Positions 1-38,555 of a stretch of 38,555 nt of DNA are shown here, in pieces. Source of the stretch: a virus. The position numbers were made by a program, and so were the translations under genes. The DNA is taken from positions 1-38,555 of the IMG/VR virus record IMGVR_UViG_3300020122_000242, one strand, 5' to 3'. Below the pieces are notes generated by a model. It was not told the origin of the DNA. It was given only the letters and a program-made list of their open reading frames with translations, and ran no database searches. Numbering within the stretch: the stretch's first letter is position 1; each line of letters begins with the position of its first letter.

Positions 1-149
1 ATGGCTCTGGCTCTGGCTATGGCTATGGCTCTGGCGATGGCTATGGCTCTGGCTCTGGCGATGGCTATGGCTATGGCTATGGCGATGGCTATGGCTCTGG
101 CGATGGCTCTGGCTATGGCTATGGCTCTGGCTCTGGCTATGGCTCTGGC
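1..149. repeat. Hexanucleotide GGC-T[A/C]T / GGC-GAT array (junction-proximal part)
   Basis: Uninterrupted 6-nt periodicity ggctat/ggctct/ggcgat. It is the same array as 38104..38555. Confidence 0.95.
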
Positions 150-26083: not shown

Positions 26084-26490
26084 CAGACGTCTTCCTCCAA
26101 AACCTGGCCCCAGCCCTTCCATTGTCCGACCATCGCTCCGCACGCCGGCTGCGCGGGAAGCCGCTCGACCTCGCGCCCTGCCTCGCGGAACCGTTCGAGC
26201 GCCTCGGCGATGTCCTCTTGGGTCGGTACGCGATACCCTGCGCGGCGTTTCCCGTGAATCGTGGTCGCCGCGCGAGCCTGCGAGCAGCCGGTGCAGGCCA
26301 TCGCGCCCCAGGCCCCATTCCCCGCGCCGATCTTGACGACCACCGCCTCGGGCGGAACGGTCTGACTGCACCAGGTCACCCGACCGGCCGCCCCGCGATC
26401 CGCCTTGATCTGATGCGCCAGCGACCATTCGCCGCTGATCTGCAGCCGCCAGCGCCATCCCGTCCGGGCCCCACCCTCGCTTCCGCTCAT
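26083..26490 (-). CDS. Hypothetical protein
   Basis: Only the last 135 codons of ORF 26083..26718 are used (MSGSEGGART..). ATGA overlap at 26487-26490. Confidence 0.5.
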   Translation of the reverse strand: MSGSEGGARTGWRWRLQISGEWSLAHQIKADRGAAGRVTWCSQTVPPEAVVVKIGAGNGAWGAMACTGCSQARAATTIHGKRRAGYRVPTQEDIAEALERFREAGREVERLPAQPACGAMVGQWKGWGQVLEEDV

Positions 26491-27674
26491 GGCGAACTCT
26501 CCACGATGACCGGTGCCGTTGCTGTTCCCGGCATTTCGTTCCACTCCCGCCCATCCAGCAGCCGCCCTGCGCGCTTTTTGCCGACGCGGGCCATTTCCAA
26601 TCCCTCGCATTGGCGGTATTCGCGCGCATGGGTCGCCATCGCCAACGGTTCTTCGAAGTCTGCGACGACCCACTCCCCCCACTGCTTGAAGAAGAACGGA
26701 ACCCCCGCCGCGACGCACTGATCTCGAATCCCCCGCGCCCAGTCCGGGTGCATCGGCCGCGCGCCGGGCCCCGACTCCCCGCCGACGATCACCCAGTCGA
26801 GGCCGACCTCGTCGCCTTTGCCGGTGCCATCACATACGCGGCAGCCATTCGCATTCGTGTCAGGCTCATATTGCGAGCCGTCTTTGCACCGGGGGCAGGC
26901 GAGATTCCAGAGACCGTCCAGGCTAAAATCCACGGACCCCAGCAGCGGCTCGGCGCTCACGAACCGCACCGCCGCGGGCGTCGCCAGCAACTCGGGAATC
27001 CGCGCATCCGCCGTCGGCTGATCCTCCGCACTTACCCCCAGCCATACGTTTGGGAGGGGCCATTTCCATTGCTCCAACGTACCTTCGCGAAACCAGAAGG
27101 ACGTTCCATGCTCCGCTTCCGCCATAACCCGGGCTTCGGTCTTCGGATCGGACAGGTACGCCCGCATCCGTTCCGGCCGCTTGGTGAGTATCTGGAAGGT
27201 GATAATCGGTTGCAGCGGCCCGTCCGGGCATCGGCAGTCCTGGTGGTCGTCATCGGGACATCCCGAGTTGTAGCGCACCCACTCAAAACTCCGGAGCGCC
27301 ATCACCGCGAAAATCCGATCGAGCACCGCGTCCGGCACGCCCTCATGAAACAGATCGCTCATCGAGTTCACGAACACCCGCAATCCCTGCTTGCGCCACC
27401 GGAGCGGCGCCTCGATCAGCTTCTCGACGACCGCGATCTTGCCGGTCCAGTGGGGTTCGCCGGGAAAAAGCGCATTCCGGGGAGCGTCCGTCCCGACGCC
27501 GACGGGCTTGATCTGCCCCATCGCTGCCAACCCCTCATAGGCCATCCCCGGCCCGCTGAATCGCGCCGCCACCCGCTCGGCGTAGCAGTGCCGACAGCCC
27601 TCGCTCACGCGCGAGCACCCCCGGATCGGGTTCCATGTGACGTCCGTCCATTCGATGGCGCTGTTCTGGCTCAT
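26487..27674 (-). CDS. DUF5131 / phage Gp37-Gp68 family protein with a Cys-rich insertion
   Basis: The N-terminus IEWTDVTWNPIRGCSRVSEGCRHCYAE matches the family signature IEWT..TWNP..GC..S.GC..CYA. It also has LDWVIVGGESGPGARP and an extra CPRCKDG...CRVCDG zinc-ribbon-like insertion. Confidence 0.75.
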   Translation of the reverse strand: MSQNSAIEWTDVTWNPIRGCSRVSEGCRHCYAERVAARFSGPGMAYEGLAAMGQIKPVGVGTDAPRNALFPGEPHWTGKIAVVEKLIEAPLRWRKQGLRVFVNSMSDLFHEGVPDAVLDRIFAVMALRSFEWVRYNSGCPDDDHQDCRCPDGPLQPIITFQILTKRPERMRAYLSDPKTEARVMAEAEHGTSFWFREGTLEQWKWPLPNVWLGVSAEDQPTADARIPELLATPAAVRFVSAEPLLGSVDFSLDGLWNLACPRCKDGSQYEPDTNANGCRVCDGTGKGDEVGLDWVIVGGESGPGARPMHPDWARGIRDQCVAAGVPFFFKQWGEWVVADFEEPLAMATHAREYRQCEGLEMARVGKKRAGRLLDGREWNEMPGTATAPVIVESSP

Positions 27675-28345
27675 CCGTGTTTATCCGCTGTGATCTGTGG
27701 CCGCTGTTCGCGGTTTGCGCGTGCCGCTCGCAATTGCCTAGGCACTCGTGCCGAAGAGGAGCCGCGCGAACGCTTCCCGCGCCGCTTGCGGGACGACGGA
27801 ATCGCCCAGGGCGCCAAGACGGTCCACCCGAGCGGGAACCCCATGAGCCACTCGACCCACGTCGGGTTCAGTTGCCCAGTCGCCAAGCCCTCCAGATCCA
27901 CGGCGGTGTCGTTCAGATTGGGCGAATACCCCGCTGCCGTGCCGCGCGCCTTGTTCTTGGCGTCTCCCGTTTTGGCGTCGCGCCGAGTCGGCGTCGGATA
28001 AAGCTCCATCGCCCGATAGAGTTCCGTCCGGTTCATCCCCGAGCTGCGCAGCCCCGCACAGTGCCGAGGCGTCGGAAACCTCGCCGCCAGGTTCGAGAGG
28101 GTCGGTCTGCCGCCCGCATAGACCTGTCCCGCCGAGCCCTTCGCCCCGTCTCCCTTCGTCGGCGTGGGCCAGACACCACCACCGCTCCCGGAGATGCGGC
28201 GCTCCCACGTCGTAAGCGCTGAGCACACCCCACCGCGCGTCATACCCCAGCGCGGCAAGGGCCCCGGCCACGGCGAGGCCTCCCCGTCCAGTGAGAGCTG
28301 GGACGTTCTCCAGGAAGACGTAAGCGGGTCGTAGCTCGCCAACGA
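27671..28345 (-). other. Alternative-frame (+1 relative to the C5-MTase frame) protein-like coding signal
   Basis: This is part of ORF 27671..28645. It has three [W/F/Y]PTP units and LNPTWVEWLMGFPLGWT. Its GC3 is higher than the annotated frame over the centre. It ends in an ATGA overlap with the next gene. Confidence 0.4.
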
Positions 28346-28652
28346 GCCGAGCGACCTCCCACCAAAGCCGACTGTGCTTTCCCGCCAGGCCCGCGCCGCG
28401 GCCCGCAAGGCTGATGTCCGTGCACGGGAATCCGGCGCTAACAAGGTCGACCGGGACGCGGATGTGCTGCGCCGACAGAGTGCGCACATCGTCCCAAATC
28501 GGCGCGCGCTCAAGCTCACCCGCCTGCATCCGCGACAGCAGAACACCGCGCCGGTACCGTGCCAGTTCGCAATAGGCGACGACCCTGACCCAGGGCCGGA
28601 GCGCAAGCGCGATTCCTCCGATTCCCGAAAATAAGTCCAACCCATTCAGCAT
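27738..28652 (-). CDS. DNA (cytosine-5)-methyltransferase (frame A); the central target-recognition part is suspect
   Basis: Motifs present: I DLFSGIGG, IV GFPCTDIS, VI ENV, VIII-like GAPHLRERWW, C-terminal EPDVGRVAHGVPARVDRLGALGDSVVPQ (IX/X-like). The central ~100 aa are Arg/Gly-rich and junk-like, with low GC3. See the finding on the overlapping frame. Confidence 0.7.
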   Translation of the reverse strand: MLNGLDLFSGIGGIALALRPWVRVVAYCELARYRRGVLLSRMQAGELERAPIWDDVRTLSAQHIRVPVDLVSAGFPCTDISLAGRGAGLAGKHSRLWWEVARLVGELRPAYVFLENVPALTGRGGLAVAGALAALGYDARWGVLSAYDVGAPHLRERWWCLAHADEGRRGEGLGGTGLCGRQTDPLEPGGEVSDASALCGAAQLGDEPDGTLSGDGALSDADSARRQNGRRQEQGARHGSGVFAQSERHRRGSGGLGDWATEPDVGRVAHGVPARVDRLGALGDSVVPQAAREAFARLLFGTSA

Positions 28653-29923
28653 CCCTCCCCCAGCAATTCGCCCTGCCCCGACGCCTGGTGCGCGGCATGT
28701 TCTTTCCAGTTCCGCCCGAGCTTCCCCGCCTTCAGGCGGTCATGAGCCGTGTGGCCGCCCAGGTCTTTGTCGCCGCCCGCCAGGTCAATCCCCACGAACT
28801 CCCGCCCCTCGCGATACGCAACTAGCCCGACCGTCCCGCTTCCCGCGAACGGGTCGAGTACGACGCAGGGGATGGGCGTCGGGGCCATCACTGCAAAGCC
28901 GGGAGCCATGCATTCGCAGGACGGGCGCCAGCCTGTAGTTTCATCGGCGCGGATAAATCCGGCCTTATGGCCGTCGCGGGCTCTATTCGAGCCCTGATCT
29001 CCGGCCTCGTGCCCATTACCATCGCGACCGTCATAGACGAATCGCTGTCCCGCTTTGACCGTCGGCACCAGATGCTTCTCGACCACCCTGACCCACGGCG
29101 CCCCGCACGCCGGACAGGCGCCCTTTTCGCTCGTCCCGGCCCGAATGCACCGCTCCACCAGCGCCTCGGGAAACGTCGCGAAATGCGCGCCGGGATAGGG
29201 CTGCGTGGCGATCTCCCACACCGTGCGAAGGTTGCGGCCGCCCTCCGGTCCACCCAGATTCGTGCCGTCGTTGCTTGGCGCGCCCGGATAATCGCGATCG
29301 CGCCGATGGCCATGGCCGTTGGTGCGCGGATCCCCGACCGTCGCGGGGGCCTTGTCCTCCCGCACCGCCTCGGCGTCGTAGAAGTACTTCGCGCGCTTGG
29401 TCAGCAGGAACACGTACTCGTGGGACTTGGTGGGCCGGTCGGTGACGCTCTCGGGCATCGGATTCGGCTTCGCCCAGATGCAATCCGCGCGGAGCCACCA
29501 CCCGTCCGCCTGCAGCGCAAACGCCACCCGCCATGGCATGCCGACCAGGTCTTTCGGCTTGAGGCCAGGCGGGGCTTTGCGGGGCTTGTCGGCATGATCG
29601 CCATGCCCCGAGCCCCAATTGGTCTGTTGCTTATCGCCACCGGCGCCGAGGCCGCCTGCCGCATAGCAATCCCCGTAGTTCACCCAACACACCCCATCGT
29701 CCCGCAGGACGCGCCGCACTTCGCGGAAGACTTCGACCATCACGGCGACATGCGCTTCCGGCGTCGCCTCGAGGCCGTACTGGCCGATCTCGCTATAATC
29801 CCGCAGGCCCCAGTAGGGCGGGCTCGTCACGACGCACTGCACGCTCCCGCTCGGGAACGTCCGCAGCACAGCGAGCGCATCGCCCTTCACGATTTGGCCG
29901 AGAGGCAAGGTCGCGCTAATCAC
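28646..29923 (-). CDS. Beta-class N4-cytosine/N6-adenine DNA methyltransferase
   Basis: Motif IV TSPPYW lies upstream of motif I VLDPFAGSGTVG (order IV then I is the beta class). SPPY favours m4C but does not prove it. The start is uncertain: GTG 29923 (GAAGGAGG just upstream, 8-nt overlap with the upstream stop) versus the track start 30088. Confidence 0.75.
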   Translation of the reverse strand: MISATLPLGQIVKGDALAVLRTFPSGSVQCVVTSPPYWGLRDYSEIGQYGLEATPEAHVAVMVEVFREVRRVLRDDGVCWVNYGDCYAAGGLGAGGDKQQTNWGSGHGDHADKPRKAPPGLKPKDLVGMPWRVAFALQADGWWLRADCIWAKPNPMPESVTDRPTKSHEYVFLLTKRAKYFYDAEAVREDKAPATVGDPRTNGHGHRRDRDYPGAPSNDGTNLGGPEGGRNLRTVWEIATQPYPGAHFATFPEALVERCIRAGTSEKGACPACGAPWVRVVEKHLVPTVKAGQRFVYDGRDGNGHEAGDQGSNRARDGHKAGFIRADETTGWRPSCECMAPGFAVMAPTPIPCVVLDPFAGSGTVGLVAYREGREFVGIDLAGGDKDLGGHTAHDRLKAGKLGRNWKEHAAHQASGQGELLGEGC

Positions 29924-30290
29924 TCGCCTCCTTCGCGCTTTCGTCCATGAACCGCCCCGGATAGCCCTGGACGGGCGAATCCCGCAGCCAGTCCCGGGGG
30001 CGACCCATGGATGGTTTCGGGTTCGGAGTTCCGGGTTCGGAGTTAACGGCCTTGTCCCGTTCCCGCTGTTCCTTGCCGCTCTTCGCACGCTTTGGCGCCA
30101 TCGGCAGATCCAAATGCTTCGGCACCTTCAATCCGTTGCGAGCCGCCAACCGCGCCAGGATCGCCCCAATCGGCTCCATGCCGCCCGGCTGTCCCGGCGG
30201 CCGCAGCTCCGGCGCCAGTCCCGGCTGCGCCTCGTACCGCTCGCGCTCGGCGGGCGTCAGGCCGTTGGGGGTGAGGGAGGGGCGGGTCAT
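29916..30290 (-). CDS. Hypothetical protein
   Basis: Trimmed to ATG 30290 (MTRPSLTPNG..). ATGA overlap at 30287-30290. Confidence 0.5.
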   Translation of the reverse strand: MTRPSLTPNGLTPAERERYEAQPGLAPELRPPGQPGGMEPIGAILARLAARNGLKVPKHLDLPMAPKRAKSGKEQRERDKAVNSEPGTPNPKPSMGRPRDWLRDSPVQGYPGRFMDESAKEASD

Positions 30291-38092: not shown

Positions 38093-38555
38093 TAACTGAC
38101 AATTCTGGCTATGGCTATGGCTATGGCTCTGGCTCTGGCTCTGGCTATGGCTATGGCTATAGCTCTGGCTATGGCTCTGGCTCTGGCTCTGGCTATGGCT
38201 CTGGCGATGGCTATGGCTCTGGCTCTGGCTCTGGCTATGGCTATGGCTCTGGCTCTGGCGATGGCTATGGCTATGGCTCTGGCTATGGCTCTGGCTCTGG
38301 CTCTGGCTCTGGCTATGGCTCTGGCTCTGGCTCTGGCGATGGCTATGGCTATGGCTATGGCTCTGGCTCTGGCGATGGCTCTGGCTCTGGCTATGGCTAT
38401 GGCTATAGCTCTGGCTATGGCTCTGGCTATGGCTCTGGCTCTGGCTATGGCTATGGCTCTGGCGATGGCTATGGCTCTGGCTCTGGCGATGGCTATGGCT
38501 ATGGCTATGGCGATGGCTATGGCTCTGGCGATGGCTCTGGCTATGGCTATGGCTC
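38080..38555 (+). CDS. (Gly-Tyr/Ser/Asp)n alternating-repeat protein, 5' part (166 aa in total, ending at 152 after the circular junction)
   Basis: ATG 38080 has GGGAAGG 6-7 nt upstream and a 13-nt overlap with the upstream gene. It reads MGQIITDNS then GYGYGYGSGSGS.... All three plus frames are open, so the frame choice rests on start, SD and stop placement. Confidence 0.5.
   Translation, partial: MGQIITDNSGYGYGYGSGSGSGYGYGYSSGYGSGSGSGYGSGDGYGSGSGSGYGYGSGSGDGYGYGSGYGSGSGSGSGYGSGSGSGDGYGYGYGSGSGDGSGSGYGYGYSSGYGSGYGSGSGYGYGSGDGYGSGSGDGYGYGYGDGYGSGDGSGYGYG
38104..38555. repeat. Hexanucleotide GGC-T[A/C]T / GGC-GAT array (main part)
   Basis: About 75 consecutive 6-nt units. The only deviations are two ggc-to-agc changes (38161, 38407). 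Confidence 0.95.
38429..38555. repeat. 127-nt terminal overlap identical to nt 1-127 (circular assembly signature)
   Basis: Compared base by base: all 127 positions are identical, and the Y/S/D order is aperiodic, so this is not a trivial repeat match. Confidence 0.9.

Follow-up and report, generated by a model that had tools for sequence, protein, structure and literature searches.

One gene body on the minus strand of a phage genome, IMG/VR virus record IMGVR_UViG_3300020122_000242, is open in two overlapping frames, and we consider it likely that it yields two polypeptides, alpha and beta, which are the two halves of one DNA (cytosine-5) methyltransferase. The stretch analysed, hereafter the window, is the whole record of 38,555 nucleotides (nt). 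Each frame is conserved and free of stops, and the segments under selection in one complement those in the other. Frame A (alpha, frame 0) carries the catalytic motifs and motif X. Frame B (beta), which is +1 relative to frame A and has about 0.9 kb in common with it, carries Pro-Thr-Pro (PTP) units and a motif IX-like segment (Table 1). The two open reading frames (ORFs) had been picked out in an original prediction made from the letters of the window alone; their ends proved exact, and every motif lies within 3 nt of the position given there.

Motifs, homologues and relatives of the two frames

Residues 3-164 of the 304 amino acids (aa) of alpha match PF00145 (Pfam, E value 1.7e-28), where the Pfam match ends, and residues 3-298 match phrog_363, labelled DNA methyltransferase (E 1.5e-60). 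Motifs I, IV (Pro-Cys), VI (ENV) and VIII (RxR) are all present. Residues 4-159 align with residues 14-167 of M.HhaI (phmmer, 1.6e-13), and the AlphaFold2 model of alpha resembles M.HhaI and M.HaeIII (Foldseek, E 2.7e-14). This model displays a confident catalytic domain (residues 1-170, predicted local distance difference test score (pLDDT) above 90), followed by a spacer of about 100 residues without secondary structure (pLDDT 33-46) and by two helices, residues 273-283 and 288-300, which include motif X (pLDDT 82-95). The near-invariant columns among the homologues are R275, R278, L282, G283, V286, V287 and P288; motif X itself reads LGDSVVPQ (27801-27786) in the window, and the family consensus is LGN[SA]VVP. 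Neither a target-recognition domain nor a motif IX was found between motifs VIII and X of the alpha chain; the motif IX-like segment sits in the +1 frame.

Single-ORF homologues align with alpha from end to end. In the alignment, RERWWxLAHA is followed by a variable, junk-like linker and then by W..EPxVGRVxxGxPxRVDRLxxLGNSVVP..AREAF. The idea that these homologues are chimeras of the two frames was rejected: thousands of them matched an A-B-A query at 98% coverage, but the alignment was frame-A-like throughout. The original prediction had said that it would be refuted by a full-length alignment of frame A with methyltransferases together with a lack of homologues for frame B; the former was found with the single-ORF enzymes, but frame B has many significant homologues.

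Residues 67-277 of beta match phrog_1008, also labelled DNA methyltransferase (E 1e-21). At least 1393 called proteins, mostly of 250-350 aa, are homologous to beta; among the 120 homologues listed, all but three are devoid of a Pfam domain, and the names given by the sources are "hypothetical protein". A profile built from 50 called homologues retrieved 49,883 cluster representatives at E<=1e-3 and 36,536 at E<=1e-10, with the best matches beginning at residue 1. Frame B itself had no match in Pfam or NCBIfam, and its sequence retrieved nothing meaningful from the PDB. For this locus, the protein database yielded just one entry from this contig, the frame B protein (P0002, source JGI), and the C5-methyltransferase of the contig therefore appears to be missing from its annotation. 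From its position and its resemblance to the canonical ..RE.ARLQGFPD.F, the beta segment LNPxWVEWLMGFPxGWT can be described as motif IX-like. The bases that encode it (LNPTWVEWLMGFPLGWT; window 27785-27878) show 77-86% nucleotide identity to methyltransferase genes of Salmonella, Synechococcus, Acinetobacter and Lacticaseibacillus phages, a value that is unusually high between such distant genomes and is consistent with a constraint on two frames.

Two sets of related loci were compared, namely a phage set of 84 loci (80 IMG/VR contigs, two GenBank phage loci, one Escherichia coli prophage locus and the window) and a second, independent set of 80 bacterial-genome loci from many phyla. Motifs IX and X were located by regular expressions in loosened form. 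The related loci share about 40-60% amino-acid identity at 45-68% GC and do not represent a single recent clone. In the 80 IMG/VR loci, motif VIII lies in frame 0, 81 codons past GFPC, and a [WL]PTP unit, at +87, is read in frame +1 from bases shared in part with the end of motif VIII. The later PTP units and LMG[FW]PxGW also fall in +1; RVDRL, which uses the bases of GWT, and LGNxVVP return to frame 0, and that frame is open along its whole length.

PTP units and motif IX in +1 together with motif X in frame 0 were found in 45 of the 84 loci of the phage set, and a further 13 fit except that the motif IX pattern is absent from every frame. Among the 80 bacterial-genome loci, which include named Pseudomonas, Myxococcus and Enterovirga genomes, 25 have the full layout and 17 more lack the motif IX pattern in any frame. 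No locus among 160 has all elements in one frame. This family-wide conservation, in phage contigs and bacterial genomes alike, excludes two explanations offered in the original prediction, recent compensating frameshifts and assembly indels. Because the number of PTP units varies, global pairwise identity is uninformative in this region and per-frame counts were used instead: 3' of motif VIII in 78 loci, there are 123 PTP tripeptides in +1, 4 in frame 0 and 3 in +2. The stop codon of beta precedes that of alpha by 5-32 nt in most relatives and lies 67 nt past it in the window.

Some relatives depart from this layout. The Streptomyces phage Lilbooboo (L081) has two overlapping annotated methyltransferase genes, in which alpha terminates past motif VIII and the +1 frame holds both motif IX and motif X, and in L029 and L061 the PTP units alone are in +1. 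In four IMG/VR loci (L013, L017, L018 and L020), the N-terminal part of alpha and the C-terminal part of beta are fused in one frame, with motif X in the third frame. These four change register past the first PTP-like unit, close to a Gly/G-rich run; the N-terminal part of alpha, WPTP and LMGWP constitute one ORF, and RVDRLKAIGNGQVP (motif X) is in -1, which is open for about 150 codons. Three proteins (P0176, P0204 and P0230) combine the alpha motif I (LDLFSGIGG) with the beta-type succession SPARTS..SSWRT..WPRSGM..PTP..LMGFPLGWT, and may represent real register changes or sequencing indels in a doubly open gene. The two-frame gene of the E. coli prophage locus (L083, E. coli PCP07014 chromosome) stands beside ead/Ea22-like, excisionase and integrase genes; both of its frames are broken at one spot, and the Prokaryotic Genome Annotation Pipeline flagged it as a pseudogene with an internal stop.

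Selection phase, open frames and start codons

For 42 loci, the variability of the nucleotides was scored separately at each codon position. Position 3 of frame 0 varies most in the N domain (0.5-0.7), which is the normal pattern of frame-0 coding. From 10 codons before to 9 codons after LMG, position 1 of frame 0 varies most (0.36-0.48) and position 3 least (0.05-0.38). Since position 1 of frame 0 is the wobble position of +1, selection around LNP..GWT acts on the +1 frame. From the tenth codon past LMG, over motif X, position 3 is once more the most variable (0.50-0.65). The original prediction had assigned the meaningful frame in the order A-B-A, which this succession of position 3, position 1 and position 3 bears out. 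It had also read the C-proximal EPDVGRVAHGVPARVD of frame A as a motif in its own right; with +1 selected around LMG, this alpha reading is instead a shadow of the motif of beta, LNPTWVEWLMGFPLGWT.

At single-codon resolution, double constraint begins at WPRxGMM of beta, about 25 codons before motif VIII, and selection is purely +1 from WPTP onward; the variability of frame-0 position 3 is lowered at codons +59 to +64. Until about 28258, beta over the catalytic motifs of alpha is a stop-free shadow only. The description of the first ~100 codons of frame B as junk-like thus stands in so far as they are a shadow of the alpha N domain, yet they are kept free of stops and carry a conserved ATG.

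Stop codons were counted and compared with shuffles of synonymous codons. The 149-codon N region contains 55 stops in +1 against 261 expected; 61 of 78 loci have none, and 17 have some. The +2 control gave 559 stops against 485 expected in the same region, without a single stop-free locus. Across the alpha spacer, frame 0 has 14 stops, all in one aberrant locus, against 146 expected, and 43 of 44 loci have none. The bacterial-genome loci replicate the depletion (59 observed, 186 expected). High GC is not its cause, since relatives of 45-52% GC show the same pattern. The two-frame pattern is far beyond chance.

The start codons in +1 are maintained by synonymous codon choice. The 5' end of most loci reads NTG-A-ATG, where an Asn codon, AAT, after the alpha start gives a +1 TGA and then a +1 ATG. 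This Asn codon is AAT in 48 of 54 cases (89%), versus 39% elsewhere in the same ORFs, and where alpha has Arg instead of Asn, CGT-G provides a +1 GTG. A +1 start lies 4 nt past the alpha start in 56 of 75 loci; this spacing, found in most relatives, is 7 nt in the window. An in-frame 5' NTGAATG is present in 67 loci, and in 57 of these it is preceded by a Shine-Dalgarno (SD)-like element, with a median spacing of 4 nt to the alpha start and 8 nt to the beta ATG. A second +1 ATG lies within the gene, 17 codons before motif VIII, and depends on a Tyr codon that is TAT in 50 of 59 cases (85%), versus 36% elsewhere; in the window it arises from Gly-Tyr-Asp of alpha spelled GGG-TAT-GAC. In low-GC lineages without the 5' +1 start, an internal ATG is accompanied by a separate SD-like sequence.

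In the window, the 5' end is GGAGG-G-ATG(28652)-CTGA-ATG(28645), in which the GGAGG core is 1 nt from the alpha ATG and 8 nt from the beta ATG. At the 3' end, we confirmed both the ATGA overlap between the beta stop and the start of the DUF5131 gene and the 63-nt gap that follows the alpha stop before that gene. The G+C content at third codon positions is 0.83 for frame B and 0.59 for frame A in the centre, 0.81 and 0.73 over 28345-28175, 0.79 and 0.84 over the last 25 alpha codons, and 0.71 and 0.76 over the first 100 codons. The hand counts of the original prediction are mostly reproduced by these values, except that of frame B over the last 25 alpha codons, which had been put at 0.69.

Table 1. 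Features of the two-frame locus and its neighbours (window coordinates).
Feature	Position	Strand	Description
Alpha ORF (frame A)	27738..28652	minus	304 aa; C5-methyltransferase large domain (motifs I-VIII), ~100-aa spacer, motif X
Beta ORF (frame B)	27671..28645	minus	324 aa; unconstrained leader, WPRWGM, three PTP units, motif IX-like segment, basic tail
Alpha motif I	28637-28614	minus	DLFSGIGG, aa 6-13
Alpha motif IV	28433-28422	minus	GFPC (GFPCTD, aa 74)
Alpha motif VI	28310-28302	minus	ENV, aa 115
Alpha motif VIII	28190-28176	minus	RERWW, aa 155
Alpha spacer	27837..28133	minus	aa 174-272; junk-like, unconserved, predicted disordered, stop-free
Alpha C-terminal segment	27830-27786	minus	RVDRLGALGDSVVPQ
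Alpha C-terminal helices	27741..27830	minus	RVDRLGALGDSVVPQAAREAFARLL, including motif X
Beta doubly constrained start region	28229..28258	minus	LPRWGMTRGG, with conserved internal +1 ATG (28243-28241); doubly constrained coding begins
Beta PTP unit 1	28174-28136	minus	VWPTPTKGDGAKG; presumed target-recognition region
Beta PTP unit 2	28081-28052	minus	RFPTPRHCAG; presumed target-recognition region
Beta PTP unit 3	28003-27965	minus	LYPTPTRRDAKTG; presumed target-recognition region
Beta motif IX-like segment	27821..27871	minus	LNPTWVEWLMGFPLGWT; alpha reading of these bases is EPDVGRVAHGVPARVD
Shared SD-like element	28653..28661	minus	GGGGGAGGG; GGAGG core 28658-28654
Dual start	28643..28652	minus	ATGCTGAATG; alpha ATG 28652-28650, beta ATG 28645-28643
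ATGA overlap	27671..27674	minus	Beta TGA and DUF5131 ATG
N6_N4 DNA methylase gene	28646-30088	minus	PF01555, E 1.5e-39; directly upstream, in the frame of beta
DUF5131 gene	26487-27674	minus	395 aa against a 243-position Pfam profile, matched in two stretches

Two proposed polypeptides and the alternatives

The open shadows, the phase of selection, the start codons, the motif layout and the model of alpha make two polypeptides the simplest account. Of the four explanations that had been listed in the original prediction, an overprinted second gene comes closest. Alpha would consist of the S-adenosylmethionine-binding, catalytic large domain (motifs I-VIII), a disordered spacer, and a motif X helix that folds back on this domain. 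Beta would be the small domain, in which a target-recognition region of PTP repeats is joined by the motif IX-like LNPxWVEWLMGFPxGWT. One ribosome-binding site probably serves both adjacent starts, and beta may begin next to the alpha start or at the internal ATG. The first ~100 residues of beta would be a passenger that needs only to stay open, and alpha would be read through a spacer that is open though unselected. The two chains may then associate non-covalently, after the example of M.EcoHK31I. On the more specific proposal, that a ~0.9-kb gene read twice from one ribosome-binding site, giving large and small domains in a fixed ratio, is the normal design of the family, we are evenly divided.

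Several points weigh against two associating polypeptides. The AlphaFold2 model of beta alone is poor (pLDDT 56.6, predicted template modelling score 0.25), and the fold of beta and its role in target recognition therefore stay presumed. No amino-acid constraint is seen in the N half of beta other than what it owes to shadowing alpha; when loci are compared over the N domain, amino-acid identity is 0.56 in frame 0 and falls to 0.31 in +1 and in +2 alike. Motif X of the window has Asp where relatives and canonical enzymes carry Asn, an exchange common to the window and its closest homologue, P0001. The natural single-ORF fusions of the L013 group indicate that covalent linkage of the two parts is tolerated. 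The internal ATG of the window has no well-spaced SD element, with a G-run only 1 nt away, and the A-B-A pattern of selection would suit one recoded chain equally well. Finally, we infer the translation of both ORFs, the beta start, the formation of a complex, the 5-methylcytosine activity and the target sequence.

Of the alternatives, the one that survives best retains two polypeptides and starts beta only at the internal ATG (28243), which would give a protein of ~190 aa, in the manner of M.EcoHK31I and of gp33 of a Streptomyces phage, with the upstream part of +1 untranslated. The synonymous choice of TAT at this ATG speaks for it, as do the beta constraint, which starts only about 5 codons before it, the +1 stops in the N region of 17 loci, and the M.EcoHK31I beta subunit, which dispenses with its first 42 residues. 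In the phiBT1-like phage Lilbooboo, gp33 also seems, by coordinates, to have its annotated start at the equivalent ATG. Such a start, however, leaves unexplained why the +1 N region is free of stops in 61 of 78 loci, and why a 5' ATG kept by AAT follows directly on a +1 stop and shares the upstream SD-like element; the spacing of the G-run in the window is poor for an internal start. We regard exclusive internal initiation as unlikely.

The main rival, at a lower probability still, is a single chain made by ribosomes that undergo programmed frameshifting twice, +1 just past motif VIII and -1 just past GWT, which corresponds to the recoding suggested in the original prediction. Its attraction is that the phase of selection is exactly A-B-A, that the A-B-A chimera has the canonical motif order, and that in-frame fusions of the N-terminal part of alpha and the C-terminal part of beta exist in some relatives. 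Recoding would, however, account neither for the stop-free alpha spacer nor for the ~150-codon open +1 stretch upstream of the shift site, parts in which each frame is unselected and nevertheless open, nor for the 5' +1 ATG maintained by codon choice. There is no conserved slippery heptamer or zero-frame stop at either junction, and no X_XXY_YYZ or +1 shift-stop motif was found in the junction consensus of 78 and 42 loci. The motif VIII strand (RERWWCLAHA) and the first WPTP lie on the same bases, so that a frameshift would truncate one of them, and the chimera would have about 7 residues from GWT to the GD of motif X, versus about 17 in an in-frame Streptomyces phage relative. The characterised precedents are, moreover, two-polypeptide enzymes.

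That only one frame is meaningful, with frame B an accidental GC-rich ORF, a decaying pseudogene or an assembly artefact, is hardly credible: long spurious ORFs are common in a window of 63.5% GC (a 463-aa antisense ORF is an example) and annotation marks one E. coli prophage copy as a pseudogene, but the same layout occurs at 45-52% GC, the wobble phase places selection in +1 around LNP..GWT, PTP units are concentrated in +1, homologues of frame B number in the tens of thousands, and the pattern is replicated in bacterial genome assemblies. The low-GC relatives, the synonymous-shuffle tests and the wobble phase together rule out the accidental GC-rich ORF.

Genome context and comparison with known systems

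The exact 127-bp terminal direct repeat (window 1-127 = 38429-38555) indicates that the contig is probably a complete, circularly assembled phage genome of ~38.4 kb. Its long ORFs with high third-position G+C are all on the minus strand. The antisense ORF mentioned above (26610..28001, plus strand) runs across the DUF5131 gene and into the methyltransferase gene, and is presumed to be an artefact of high GC. The TGA of the upstream N6_N4 methyltransferase gene (28648-28646) abuts the beta ATG, inside alpha codons 2-3 and in the frame of beta. At either end of the two-frame gene, start and stop signals touch or overlap, so the three genes appear to be translationally coupled. This phage thus has two methyltransferases back to back, the N6_N4 gene and the two-frame gene. 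The GTG start of the N6_N4 gene may be placed too far upstream; an ATG at 29740 would give 364 aa. The DUF5131 product, at 395 aa and with its match in two stretches, appears to have a large Cys-rich insertion (CPDDDHQDCRCPDGP, CPRCKDG...CRVCDGTG).

If our interpretation is true, the nested alpha/beta arrangement, of which M.EcoHK31I has so far been regarded as a curiosity, would be a standard way of building the cytosine methyltransferases of phages and prophages. On the more specific proposal, it would be the normal design of a family whose members, in phages and prophages from different bacterial phyla, number in the tens of thousands. The gene pair would then rank with the longest and most widely distributed same-strand overlaps known in prokaryotic viruses, and a "hypothetical protein" family of ~36,000 clusters would be the missing target-recognition subunit of C5-methyltransferases. 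The region that would determine specificity sits in a frame that annotation pipelines usually discard or call "hypothetical", and under single-frame annotation a contig seems to have either no C5-methyltransferase or an enzyme without a recognisable target-recognition domain. Gene callers that bar long same-strand overlaps would systematically lose one subunit, and predictions of methylomes and of anti-restriction would be affected. The family would also offer a large natural data set for the study of evolution under dual-frame constraint, and naturally split methyltransferases for engineering, as M.EcoHK31I was used. We found no description of the two-frame layout of this phage family in the literature searched, which does not prove that there is none.

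In the structure of M.HhaI, the large domain contains motifs I-VIII as well as X; the small domain contains the target-recognition domain and motif IX. We take alpha to be the equivalent of the M.HhaI-type large domain and beta that of the small domain. The catalytic domains of M.HhaI and M.HaeIII are homologous to alpha, but these enzymes are single chains encoded in a single frame. A nested +1-frame gene pair whose products form one complex is also represented by the lambda spanin Rz/Rz1, in which Rz1 is short (~60 codons) and has its own internal start. The overlap here, in contrast, covers ~300 codons and the starts are adjacent.

M.EcoHK31I and M.AquI are the only two-polypeptide exceptions named in the review text. 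M.AquI (Synechococcus PCC 7002, CYCGRG) is split inside the variable region into two polypeptides encoded by overlapping ORFs. As in M.AquI, gp32 and gp33 of Lilbooboo constitute a split C5-methyltransferase with overlapping ORFs. Lilbooboo gp33 is in the +1 frame, its start appears to correspond to the ATG at 28243 of the window, and it carries LLPTPTVSD and AEWLMGLEPGW. In both, alpha stops about 10 codons past motif VIII and motif X is in the frame of beta. The window differs from this type, since its alpha reads on to motif X and its beta lies inside the span of alpha.

The closer parallel, judged by published design, is M.EcoHK31I. Lee et al. are said to have reported in 1995 an alpha chain of 309 aa and a beta chain of 176 aa; the sizes in the window are similar (304 aa for alpha, and 190 aa for beta counted from the internal ATG). 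M.EcoHK31I (E. coli HK31, YGGCCR) is a heterodimeric C5-methyltransferase, and its beta was shown experimentally to be encoded wholly within the alpha gene in another frame (PMC2836561, PMC3404938). Its alpha contains motifs I-VIII and X, its beta contains motif IX, and both are required; beta does not need the ~42 residues at its N-terminus, and other Met codons inside it can serve as starts (PMC2836561, PMC3404938). The window likewise has a beta ORF in an alternative frame of the alpha gene, an alpha with motifs I-VIII and, with Asp in place of the usual Asn, X, but not IX, and a beta with a motif IX-like segment. By this analogy, the locus may work like M.EcoHK31I, with a design related to that of M.AquI.

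The differences from M.EcoHK31I are several. The +1 ORF of the window spans the whole alpha gene, starting 7 nt after the alpha ATG and ending 67 nt past the alpha stop, and the adjacent starts share an SD-like element. Selection and motifs place the target-recognition region in beta here, with an unselected spacer in alpha, whereas the literature on M.EcoHK31I places it in alpha. The window gene is, furthermore, a phage gene, with no restriction gene identified adjacent to it, and belongs to a very large phage and prophage family rather than being a one-off restriction-modification enzyme. Compared with M.EcoHK31I, what is new is therefore the overlap of whole genes with adjacent starts, the target recognition presumably contributed by beta, and the very large phage and prophage family in which this arrangement is found.

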